Assembly: GCA_951406725.2 (NCBI GenBank)
Contig: OX597825.1
Coordinates: forward strand, 5,270,001-5,334,000
Direction of reading: 5' to 3'
Length of the DNA stretch: 64,000 nucleotides
Origin: Octopus vulgaris
Lineage: Eukaryota
Positions within the stretch are counted from its first letter, which is position 1. Every line of letters starts with the position of its first letter. The notes below the pieces were generated by a model that ran no database searches, was not told the DNA's origin, and worked only from the letters and a program-made list of their open reading frames with translations. The translations under genes and the position numbers were made by a program. Below are positions 4,832 to 49,782 of this stretch, in pieces.

Positions 4832-5335
4832 AATGCAAAATGGGACAAGAACGCAAAACATCCAGGCAGTTAGGTGATACAGGAAAGGGAAAACAAAACA
4901 TCCAGATAGACGATACAAAGAAAAAAAGGACGGGTCATTCGGAGATTTCTTTCCTCAGTCGAGTTCCAGGTTATCTTTGCAGTTTCGGCTGGTTATACTC
5001 GTGATTGCTCCAATCTGGCCAGCCCCAAGGAAAAACTAAGCTAATGTATACGAAAACAAGGACGAAAAAAAACGGAGAAGTTTACACAAATACAAATAAC
5101 AGGACATAACAACAGGTGTCTTTCGACTAAGGACGAATTAAATTAAACTGGGATACAAGTTTTCACAGGCACAGAGAAGAATATAGATGCTGCATGGACA
5201 GCGGCTGAACCAAGAATGAAAGATCAGGCTTGGCCGAACACTGGAAGAGAGAGAGGGGTAGAGGCAGAGGGACAGAAGAAGTAAGGAGGGGCGAGAAAAA
5301 ATGACATTTAGACAGTGAAGTGAAAAGAGGAGGGA
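4832..5335 (-). mobile_element. (TA)n-flanked non-coding element, diverged relative of 25158-25942
   Basis: Shares colinear blocks with 25158-25650 (GGACGGG.CATTCG, TTTCGGCTG, GATTGCTCC, TCTTTCGAC..GGACGAATT, CAGCGGCTG). Confidence 0.65.
4952..5024 (-). ncRNA. Scrambled-order hammerhead-like motif
   Basis: Minus strand: ggctgg..gcaa-TC-acgagt..ccagcc-GAAA-ctgc..actcga-CTGAGGA. Stems II ggctgg/ccagcc and I cgagt/actcg pair; stem III has one mismatch. Confidence 0.5.
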
Positions 5336-5480: not shown

Positions 5481-6733
5481 CGAGGGGCGTTCAATAAGTA
5501 ATGCCCCTGACCCACTTCCCATAGCAGTAGAGCAACGAAACTTGGCACAGTTATTAGTCTTTTTCTACATAGCAACCACCCAGAGTTACGCATTTCTCCC
5601 ATTGTTTGATGCAGCTCTGGATACCGTTTTTATAGAAGACCCCAGCTTGGTCCTCCAACCTGAACGCGACTTCAGAAATCAAGGCTGCATCATCTGGGAA
5701 ACGCTTTCCTTTCAAAAACAACTTCATGACTGGGAAGAGGTGAAAATCAGAGGGTGCAAGGTCAGGAAAGTAGGGGGATGGGGGAGGAGTTCATAGCCAT
5801 ACGCCTGTGCTTCTGATCTGGCGATAAGCGAGTTGTGGACCGGAGCTTTGTCCTGCAGGAGGAGGAGGCCTTTGCTGATCTTGCCCCACCTCTTGATTTT
5901 GATAACTTCTCTTAATTTCCTCAAAAGTGAAGCATAATAGGCTCCTGCAATTGTGGTACCCTTTGCCAGGAAATCTGTCATCACTACTCCGTCCTGGTCC
6001 CAGAAGACTGTGAGCATGACCTTGCCAGCGGAGGGCTGCACCCTTGCCTTCTTTGGAGGGGGTGAGTCACGGTGCTTCCACTGCATTGACTGGGATTTGG
6101 TCTCTGGATCATTGTGATGGACCCAGGTTTCATCCTGTGTAATCAGTCTTTTGAAAAATTTTGACTCATCTTCTTGGCACATCTCTAAATTCACCCTCGA
6201 GCACTCGACGCGTTCTTGCTTCTGGAAAGGCGTAGGCAACCTGGGAATCCATCTGGCAGATACCTTTTGCATATGCAAATGGTCATGAATGATAGTTTCC
6301 ACAGACCCGGTACTAATCTTGACCTCATGGGCTATTTGGCGAATAGTTATGCGTCGATCTTCCAAAATGGCAGCCTCAACTTGACGAATGGGAGCTGTTT
6401 CCACAGAGTTCCGACCATGTTTGAATTCACGATGCCAGCGTTTTACAAGGTCATATGATGGGGCATCATCACCATAAGTTACTTTCATTCCATCAAAAGT
6501 CTCCCGTGGTGTGCGTCCTTTCAAATACAAAAACCGGATCACTGCTCGACACTCAACAGGCTCCATTTCACACTTGACTCGGTTCAAACACCTGTAAATC
6601 AGAAACCACAATTACTTCAGAGCTGTAATTTGCCACTTACTCTATAGAGATATAAACAATTGCACATGCAAAATTTCAGGTAGATCAAACAACTGCAAGT
6701 GGGTCAGAGGCATTACTTATTGAACGTCCCTCG
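5481..6733 (-). mobile_element. Mariner (DD34D) DNA transposon, near full length
   Basis: 37-bp TIRs CGAGGG(G/A)CGTTCAATAAGTAATGCC(C/T)CTGACCCACTT with 2 mismatches. TA target duplication at 5479-5480 and 6734-6735. Confidence 0.95.
5554..6566 (-). pseudogene. Mariner transposase, frameshifted
   Basis: MEPVECRAVIRFLYLKG...WIPRL...ITQDETW...LLQDKAPVH...HPP then a 1-bp frameshift to YFPDLAPSDFHLF...YVEKD*. 34 residues lie between the second and third D. The expected GRP linker after ETAP is missing. Confidence 0.92.
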
Positions 6734-10259: not shown

Positions 10260-10904
10260 CCTGTGTCTACGAACTTCCTTTCGCTGGCGGCCTTATTCAA
10301 GTAAACATGTTTCTTCCTGCGCTCGTGAAAAAATTTTTTGCTCGTCTAGGCTTATAGGCCCTCTTTATTTGTTTTCCTGTCCTGTTTCTATTCCTTCTTG
10401 TACTGTATTTTTTGTAATTGTATTTTTATTTTGTATTTGTTTTTAATTGTATTGTTTTTACGTCCTGTTTTTGTCACATTTTTTTCTTGTTTTTACCCCT
10501 CTGCAAAGGAATTTTATTTAATTCTTTCGCAGGAAGGACTAGTTCGGCGAGACGTGTTCTGTCCTCACCTTCGAAACACGCTGGAGTTGAACTAGGGACA
10601 GCCGATGAAGGGGATTTTTCCTTGTGTAGTTGTCTTGTACTCTGCTTTTCGTTGTTAAAAAAATGGTCCCTTCCATGCTGTTTTTACGTTTTCGTTTCTC
10701 GTTGAGTTCTACGTCTATTTGTGGTGTCCTGTACACACGTATATATATTTATATATGCATGTATATATACATGTAGATGTAGGTACGTACATATATGTTT
10801 GTATGTATGCATATATTTTATCTGTTACACTATTGTATGACTGAGCACCTTCGCGTCGATTCGATTCGTTTGGTTTCGTTTCGTTTCTTCTTCTTCTCTA
10901 AGCT

Positions 10905-18334: not shown

Positions 18335-18722
18335 AGGTCGCGAGCCGCCAGAATCGATTAGCACGTCAGGCAAAATGCTTGCCGGTATTTCGACAGCCTT
18401 TACGTTTAGAGTTCAAATTCCGCCGAAGTCGACTTTGCCTTTCATCCTTTCGGGGTCGATTAAATAAATACCAGTTTCGTACTGGGGTCGATGTAATCGA
18501 CTTAATCCGTTTGTCTGTACTTGTTTGTCTCCTCTATATTTAGCCCCTTGTGGTATTTCGTCAGCCTTTACATTTGGAGTTCAAATGCTGCCGTGGTCGA
18601 CTTTACCTTTCATACTTTCGGCGTCCATAAAATAAGCATCAGTCGAACACTGAGATCGATGTAATTCACCAAACGCCATCCACCCCCGAAATTGCTGGCC
18701 TTGTGCCAAAATTTGAAATCAA
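18335..18722 (+). mobile_element. Two adjacent SINE family M copies
   Basis: GAGTTCAAAT..GCCG..GTCGACTTT.CCTTTCAT occurs twice (about 18410 and 18577). Confidence 0.8.
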
Positions 18723-25109: not shown

Positions 25110-25159
<50 letters not shown>

Positions 25160-25245
25160 TAAACAGTAAAAATAATTACAGACATGGACAAGAACATGAA
25201 ACGCCACAGAGACGACACAAGAACCACAGGACGGGACATTCGAAG

Positions 25246-25334
25246 CCCTCAGTCATCAGTCAAGAACCAGATCATCTTAGCAATTTCGGCTGATTAATCT
25301 TGAGATTGCTCCGATATGGGCAGCCCGCCAAGGG
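25246..25334 (-). ncRNA. Scrambled-order hammerhead-like motif (intact core)
   Basis: Minus strand: cccttgg-cg-ggctg-cccatatcgg-agcaa-TC-tcaaga-ttaat-cagcc-GAAA-ttgct-aagatgatctggt-tcttga-CTGATGA-ctgaggg. Confidence 0.6.
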
Positions 25335-26030
25335 AAATCTAAGCCAAGTGCATTAGATCCCCTGGAAGAAAGCTTCGAATGTATACAACACGAGGACGGA
25401 AAACGAACGAAGTACACGAACAAAAATACAGAATACGTGACAACAATAAGAATACAAAAACGTAAAAACAATAACGGTAAAAATAAAGTATAAAAAATAA
25501 ACAACAAAACAAAACCAGGACGTAGGACAAGGGTCTTTCGACAGGACGAATTGAGTATGGGGCTGGCTTATGAAGTTGTGCCTAATGGCCACAGGGAGAC
25601 GAACAAATACGTGTTGCTTCAGCGGCTGCTGGAACGAAAAGAGCGCTCAACAGCGGCTAGCGGTCACGTGAGAACAAAAGACAAGAGAAAGGGACAGATG
25701 AAAAGAGAGAGAAGGTGGACGAGGGAGGAGAAGAAAGAGACAGATCGAGGGGGCTGGAGGTGAGAGAGATAGAGAAACGTAGAAGGGGGGGAAGACGGAT
25801 GGAGAGGGAAAGAAAGGAGGGGGAATAAGGGAGGAGAGAGAGAGAGAGAGAGAAAGAAAGATTAAGAGTCGTATCAATGCTTGAGAAAAAAATATATTTA
25901 TCGTATAAGGACAATTGTGGATACGTAGCCGCCGATTATATAGGTAAACAGTAAAAATAATTACAGACATGGACAAGAACATGAAACGCCACAGAGACGA
26001 CACAAGAACCACAGGACGGGACATTCGAAG

Positions 26031-26119
26031 CCCTCAGTCATCAGTCAAGAACCAGATCATCTTAGCAATTTCGGCTGATTAATCTTGAGATTGCTCCGAT
26101 ATGGGCAGCCCGCCAAGGG
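26031..26119 (-). ncRNA. Second identical copy of the scrambled-order hammerhead-like motif
   Basis: Identical to 25246-25334, offset by 785 bp. Confidence 0.6.
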
Positions 26120-26129
26120 AAATCTAAGC

Positions 26130-26181
<52 letters not shown>

Positions 26182-49558: not shown

Positions 49559-49619
<61 letters not shown>

Positions 49620-49624
49620 TGCAT

Positions 49625-49782
49625 ATATTGGTATCGGACGTCACCAACTGTGTAAACAACATAAAGTACGAAAACAAACGAGTTAAATACGCAGACAAAA
49701 TGGTAAACAGGACAAGTAACACACAGAATGAACCTTCATCAGTTGTCGGCTGTCTATCTACTCCTCATTTCGAGCATTCAAA
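49625..49782 (-). mobile_element. 5'-truncated element with the 3' half of the scrambled hammerhead-like motif
   Basis: Minus strand: gctc-GAAA, then 25 nt, then CTGATGA-agg, the same spacing as 10573-10608. The downstream tail resembles 10610-10735. Confidence 0.5.

Follow-up and report, generated by a model that had tools for sequence, protein, structure and literature searches.

At one Octopus vulgaris locus, the strands of a hammerhead ribozyme are joined in an order that fits none of types I, II or III. This raises the questions of whether the motif is a genuine hammerhead variant, how its interrupted core might be held together, and which element carries it. The locus lies in a window of 64,000 nt, the whole stretch of DNA that was analysed, and all coordinates refer to that window.

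Layout of the motif and its place among known hammerheads

The complete set of hammerhead core boxes and helices I–III is found at 25253-25325 on the minus strand (Table 1), in the order II, III', UC, I, II', GAAA, III, I', CTGATGA. A sequence-only reading of this DNA had claimed that order, and the claim is correct, as is its view of a multiply pseudoknotted, hammerhead-like fold outside types I, II and III; the cyclic order is S-G-C. CUGANGA, GAAA, an NUH site with A15.1-U16.1 and the G10.1-C11.1 pair are all present in the focal motif and its families. Cleavage is predicted between 25304 and 25303, where that reading had also correctly placed the putative site. The span that it gave for the structure was too narrow, and its inventory overlooked the twin copy, the two clamp helices P0 and Pa, the tandem retrozyme-like repeat and the link to Naiad elements.

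Table 1. Features of the focal locus and of related copies (window coordinates)
Feature	Position	Strand	Remarks
Full 785-bp non-coding repeat unit, family F1	25158..25942	-	3' end fixed, abutting (TA)n
Upstream unit, 190 bp, identical, 5'-truncated	25943..26132	-	holds core 26038-26110, without the 5' strands of P0 and Pa
(TA)n at 3' flank	25113..25157		second (TA)n run 26133-26178 at 5' end
Whole predicted ribozyme: open-core, non-circularly permuted hammerhead with two clamp helices	25237..25381	-	
Closing helix P0, 5' strand	25368..25381	-	14 bp with 25250-25237, -19.2 kcal/mol
Hairpin Pa	25328..25365	-	25365-25353 with 25342-25328; ends 2 nt before G10.1
Helix II 5' arm GGCTG	25325-25321	-	starts at G10.1; not joined to CUGAUGA
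Linker (stem I-II interaction) helix, 5' strand	25313..25319	-	partner 25273-25267; weak in focal copy
Block S: III' arm AGCAA, U16.1-C17, I arm TCAAGA	25298..25310	-	UC at 25305-25304
Block G: II' arm CAGCC, GAAA, III arm TTGCT	25279..25292	-	GAAA at 25287-25284
Block C without helix II arm: I' arm TCTTGA and CTGATGA box	25253..25265	-	box at 25259-25253
Closing helix P0, 3' strand	25237..25250	-	begins 2 nt after A9
Twin core, identical	26038-26110	-	inside 5'-truncated unit
F1/F3 shared GTC-GAAA-GAC hairpin motif	25560-25520 and 5140-5110	-	
F2 copy	10501..10620	+	Pa hairpin 10501-10532; core 10533-10608; helix II GAAGG/CCTTC
Acceptor-like Pa strand	10520-10533	+	F2; also L172
F3 copy, degenerate	4952..5024	-	no Pa hairpin predicted; mismatches in helices I and III
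F5 copy	49602..49781	-	5'-truncated 6 nt downstream of predicted cut

Eckert et al. (2023, PMC10085705) described the hammerhead as three blocks, S, G and C, each assumed to be uninterrupted, which yields six permutations. According to the same paper, types SGC and CSG cleave in vitro at 0.004-0.19 per min, SGC being drawn from metatranscriptomes only and CSG from metagenomes only, with two CSG sequences. The octopus motif shares with these types (HRIMA-1) the cyclic order, the core boxes, a short I-to-II' linker and a helical stem I-II interaction, and it lacks the C-G-S order of types I–III. It departs from them in that block C is split: the helix II arm does not directly follow CUGANGA, the helix II and interaction arms come first and CUGANGA comes last. 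In addition, a hairpin and a closing helix flank the A9/G10.1 gap, and the motif occurs in thousands of copies in an animal genome.

The earlier proposal that the topology was undescribed therefore holds in part. Its cyclic order was already known; relative to the literature covered, what is new is the chain break between CUGANGA (A9) and helix II (G10.1), together with the animal-retroelement setting. Weinberg et al. 2015 (PMC4509812) is cited elsewhere for hammerheads with additional helices, and an extra helix at the A9/G10.1 junction may have precedent. The article PMC13725137 points to Weinberg 2015, Eckert 2023 and Forgia 2023 on variants that are permuted or have added helices, and the passages available from Forgia 2023 and Perreault 2011 do not contain such a junction. 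Cervera 2014 describes a single unpaired base between CUGANGA and helix II. The hammerheads of De la Pena and Flores 2001, as cited in PMC4209133 and PMC6155905, likewise tolerate change at A9/G10.1; one base is bulged there, whereas here the backbone is fully opened and two helices are added. Li et al. 2026 (10.64898/2026.07.22.740005), in the portion consulted, used type I descriptors only. No description of the open-core wiring, or of permuted hammerheads in Naiads, was found in the literature covered, which lay outside subscription journals and bioRxiv supplements.

A descriptor scan of the window returned four matches: the focal core, its twin, 10533-10608 and a looser one at 18558-18650 (minus strand). 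Sixty dinucleotide shuffles of the window gave one match in total at the loose setting and none at the strict setting. The looser match has a 43-nt spacing and is probably due to chance; its surroundings resemble what we take to be a common SINE-type repeat. Rfam returned no match at gathering score across the window and none at E<=10 over 25150-26150, as expected if standard models miss the motif. When the 106-111-nt cores are given nested folds, their stability does not exceed that of shuffles (z 0.73, -0.65 and -0.34). The two linkers had been said to pair; this stem I-II interaction helix does exist in most families, but the focal copy has a weak one of 6 pairs (-2.9 kcal/mol), and in L114/L119 it is broken.

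The same layout had been reported for three further copies in the window. At 10533-10608 it is as described, except that the core reads CCGAUGA, while most F2 copies have CUGAUGA. The copy at 4952-5024, which escaped the descriptor, carries one mismatch in helix I and one in helix III, but its intact relatives in the same genome pair fully. The partial copy at 49736-49781 is indeed 5'-truncated, and intact F5 relatives elsewhere in the genome complete the motif with helix II GAGCA/TGCTC. Approximately 200 nt upstream of the ribozyme, F1 and F3 have in common a motif that includes a small GTC-GAAA-GAC hairpin and may be an enzyme recognition site. A stop-free frame of 295 aa at about 5730-6611 on the minus strand is presumably a mariner-type transposase remnant.

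Covariation of helix II and the predicted clamp

In an alignment of 19 copies built from sequence only, with two misaligned F6 rows scored where they lay, 91.6% of 95 cells are paired for the upstream helix II arm, in agreement with the proposal that this arm is supplied from upstream. Two-sided changes affect four of the five pairs, 22 such changes in all. None of 500 shuffles paired as highly, slid controls reached 12-45%, and the families contain four distinct helix II sequences. When one copy from each of seven families was compared, Watson–Crick pairs were found at 35/35 positions in helix II, 27/28 in helix III and 34/35 in helix I, against cross-family means of 2.43/5, 0.95/4 and 1.76/5, respectively. 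Of 5040 arm permutations, 12 (II), 2 (III) and 1 (I) equalled the true pairing; these counts are not probabilities, as the families are related, well-formed copies were picked and a pairing scan served to locate the arms.

A perfect arm arises by chance in shuffled upstream DNA in 1-11% of trials per copy. The G10.1-C11.1 pair and the NUH site are retained in all families compared. The same 16-base pattern is accompanied by a matching upstream arm at 30 of 36 sites in the octopus genome versus 2 of 80 metagenome loci; among those 80 stretches, out of 120 reported, the fold was found in none, and the two loci with an arm form no helices I and III. The expectation that helices I, II and III covary across aligned family copies, with the core boxes kept, is thus supported, for related sequences and selected copies. 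Judged by these comparisons, the motif is a real, covarying, further variant of the hammerhead ribozyme.

To survey the flanking helices, 24 copies were folded while the core was kept open. In 19 of them (21 by a looser metric) a clear hairpin is predicted to end within 2 nt of G10.1, with a different sequence in each family, and a P0 of at least 10 pairs close to A9 is predicted in 9; in F2, F4 and F5 a local hairpin competes with P0. Flank energy has a z below -2 in 12 of the 24 copies, and 3-25% of shuffles display both clamp features. In the unconstrained fold of the focal copy, P0 and helix II both form. On these models Pa is general and P0 partial among copies, and the two helices appear to clamp the A9/G10.1 gap, keeping the loose ends adjacent.

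Splicing was considered as a means of rejoining block C and rejected: only F2 and F4 have an acceptor-like CAG/G site, and the core is not followed by a GT donor. In both families the 3' strand of Pa resembles a splice acceptor, with a pyrimidine tract and CAG, and stops precisely at G10.1; the clamp would be lost if splicing took place there. Introns at the 5' end occur in Penelope-like elements (PLEs).

The repeat unit and its relation to Naiad elements

The F1 unit encodes no ORF with an N-terminal GIY-YIG and reverse transcriptase (RT), and its longest ATG frame has 125 codons. Of 2560 candidate matches in the genome, 40 were scored, and the best of them share 96-100% identity with the query along most of its length. 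Each of the 30 loci examined holds 2-5 sites, nearly all 776-785 bp apart. The 3' end falls on the same base against TA repeats in all 27 loci where it is visible, the 5' ends are uneven, and inverted truncated copies are seen in F2. Insertion into (TA)n, partial tandems and inverted truncated copies are common to other PLE clades as well and are not diagnostic for Naiad. Non-LTR retrozymes (Cervera and de la Pena 2020, PMC7229834; Li et al. 2026) likewise consist of non-coding tandem units with one hammerhead each, are dispersed as young copies and are proposed to depend on PLEs. They differ in carrying a type I hammerhead in units of 150-450 bp, whereas the unit here is ~780 bp long and, with no type I hammerhead, would escape type I descriptors.

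The pattern GAAA-N24-CTGANGA occurs 26,051 times genome-wide versus 4,852 times for a reversed control, the dinucleotide content of which is not matched exactly. Sixteen of the first 30 loci of this class belong to motif families, which would put this spacing class alone at roughly 14,000-21,000 copies. For AAA-N25-CTGANGA, the raw pattern counts are 60,862 versus 27,943 for the control. Random sampling of the genome yielded 4 convincing sites per 400 kb, below the density suggested by the window. Contigs from four runs, which we guessed to be RNA, cover the unit, and no start, end or level is visible in them. Among 50 truncated copies, the 5' ends of three, two of these at a single locus, lie within 2 nt of the predicted cut where ~1.3 are expected, so there is no significant enrichment. 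Three copies, two at L164 and one at L120, begin at the predicted cut directly after TA repeats, an observation that is suggestive, not significant.

Craig et al. (2021, PMC8557442) reported that Naiad PLEs prefer (TA)n and lack canonical hammerheads, and that cephalopod Naiads have long been inactive. They flagged 10 Naiads as HHR_core and 8 as HHR_half_core, with no structure given; Naiad_Ovul is among those flagged. We surveyed by eye ~300 nt of the 3' tail in 51 consensi and a few core-box passages from the supplement of that paper, covering the series up to entry 165 with the exception of one tail. The consensi were compiled independently of the open-core model. The open-core layout is seen in 8 of the 51: a ctenophore (Bfor, in which helix I has only 2 bp), five cnidarians (Chem-3, Amil, Aacu, Anas and Movir-2) and octopus (Obim and Ovul). 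Pa and P0 are also visible in Bfor, Chem-3, Amil and Movir-2. Seven nematode Naiads (Nbra-1, -2, -3, Hcon, Hpol, Asuum and one Pristionchus entry) have an intact type CSG; these nematode hammerheads are textbook-like, with long interaction helices.

The remaining tails carry other motifs, or none, in the stretch viewed. In the arthropod tails Ptep and Dst, the order is S-G-C and CUGANGA is followed by a short helix to the strand before I', with no G10.1-C11.1 pair obvious by eye; this is possibly a third layout. Movir-1 and several bivalve tails have, where other Naiads carry the permuted hammerhead, a motif that we take to be Twister-like. Other bivalve tails and hemichordate tails share a different conserved motif.

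The octopus Naiad tail motif occurs 365 times in its own genome versus none in the control, and the loci carry the same fold. One F6 copy has, upstream of the motif, a peptide matching the end of the Naiad_Obim ORF; on this sequence match, F6 is taken to be the 3' region of a Naiad. No BLAST match was found between F1 and F6, and no autonomous element with the F1 ribozyme was found in the genome loci examined. The F1 unit resembles Naiad PLEs (PMC8557442) in its (TA)n target, partial tandems, inverted truncated copies and a motif near the 3' end, but it lacks an RT and any sequence tie to a specific Naiad. From topology and target site, we infer that F1 would depend on a Naiad enzyme. F1 is young, whereas cephalopod Naiads are described as long inactive, and the helper may therefore be a different PLE. 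One young Penelope-like family, which has an endonuclease-like region at the C-terminus, was rejected as the carrier: none of its 26 loci (L126-L151) has the motif behind the ORF, and the sole match is an F5 copy on the opposite strand (L126/L127). Loci L136-L151 hold a very young Penelope-like family with many near-identical copies and intact frames of 776-876 aa (RVT_1 match); no hammerhead was found within ~900 bp behind the ORF, and the family is a candidate helper enzyme.

Predicted activity of the open core

We consider it probable, on comparative sequence grounds, that the motif is an active, retrozyme-like, self-cleaving processing ribozyme, with the SGC/CSG order and a chain opening within block C, between A9 and G10.1. 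Its catalytic core would form as usual from helices I, II and III plus the stem I-II linker helix. The hairpin ending at G10.1 and, in many families, the closing helix from A9 would make the ribozyme a large bulge on one strand of a long stem. The motif would belong to the 3' repeat of Naiad PLEs and to short non-coding repeats, which probably borrow a Penelope-like enzyme. Following the cycle that Cervera and de la Pena (2020, PMC7229834) set out for retrozymes, a read-through transcript spanning tandem units would receive one cut in each unit (785 nt), and the monomers would be circularised by the host tRNA ligase. The circle would then be reverse transcribed into (TA)n sites, such copying back producing arrays in which the 5' ends are ragged but the 3' end is constant.

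It is unlikely, yet worth weighing, that the fold is conserved and does not cleave alone, being cut only with a protein or in trans, or giving the Naiad reverse transcriptase a place to bind or to prime. The break in the core lies at a junction that Eckert et al. (2023, PMC10085705) assumed to be uninterruptible, and known alignments, by their account, contain no insertion longer than 1-2 nt between CUGANGA and helix II, so that the open core may be slow or dead. Minimal PLE hammerheads are reported to cleave poorly in vitro, and the missing enrichment of 5' ends at the predicted cut points the same way. The II' arm, furthermore, can pair in part with G8-A9 and the bases that follow (at slide -2, in 68% of cells), a possible off state; in the focal copy, however, this helix is weaker than helix II (-3.1 versus -6.8 kcal/mol). 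Against a non-cleaving fold stands the retention of the catalytic positions and the NUH site in seven families and three phyla while the helices turn over.

That the motif is an ordinary SGC hammerhead, its helix II formed by the bases after CUGANGA, sometimes with one extra nucleotide, and the upstream arm incidental or regulatory, seems highly improbable. One extra nucleotide at this junction is known from the literature, and a 4-of-5 downstream helix with G-U pairs can be drawn in F2, F4 and F5, but F1, F3, F6 and F7 offer only 0-2 of 5 pairs. Overall, this canonical arm pairs in 26.3% of cells, as high as which 432 of 500 shuffles score, and the upstream arm is perfectly complementary in all seven families; a plain SGC with downstream helix II was rejected on these figures. 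We would give equally little credence to a strand-swapped dimer between adjacent tandem units as the active form, although the element is found in tandem arrays and PLEs and amphibian retrozymes provide known cases of dimeric hammerheads. Known dimers offset a weak helix III, which here has 4-5 pairs, and the clamp helices are intramolecular. Neighbouring copies lie ~780 nt apart, so a strand swap would leave A9 and G10.1 unjoined; the dimer-assembled variant once proposed is not needed, as the two flanking helices of a monomer can hold the ends.

For the active, clamped open-core ribozyme, the balance of evidence leans towards a wider conclusion: that the six-permutation scheme is incomplete, with this wiring extending from ctenophores and cnidarians to octopus and forming, with the nematode CSG type, the missing hammerhead of many Naiads. 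If this is true, non-circularly permuted ribozymes would be abundant parts of animal genomes, not metatranscriptome rarities, and the published assumption that block C is uninterruptible would be overturned by a natural, high-copy example. It would give non-circularly permuted RNAs the first genomic home found in named animals. The seven nematode CSG Naiads are a finding in their own right, set against the two CSG sequences reported before. Together, CSG and open-core forms in one retroelement clade would offer a natural series for studying how RNA topology is rearranged, as well as a direct answer to the apparent absence of hammerheads from Naiads, in which the HHR_half_core flags become testable structures.
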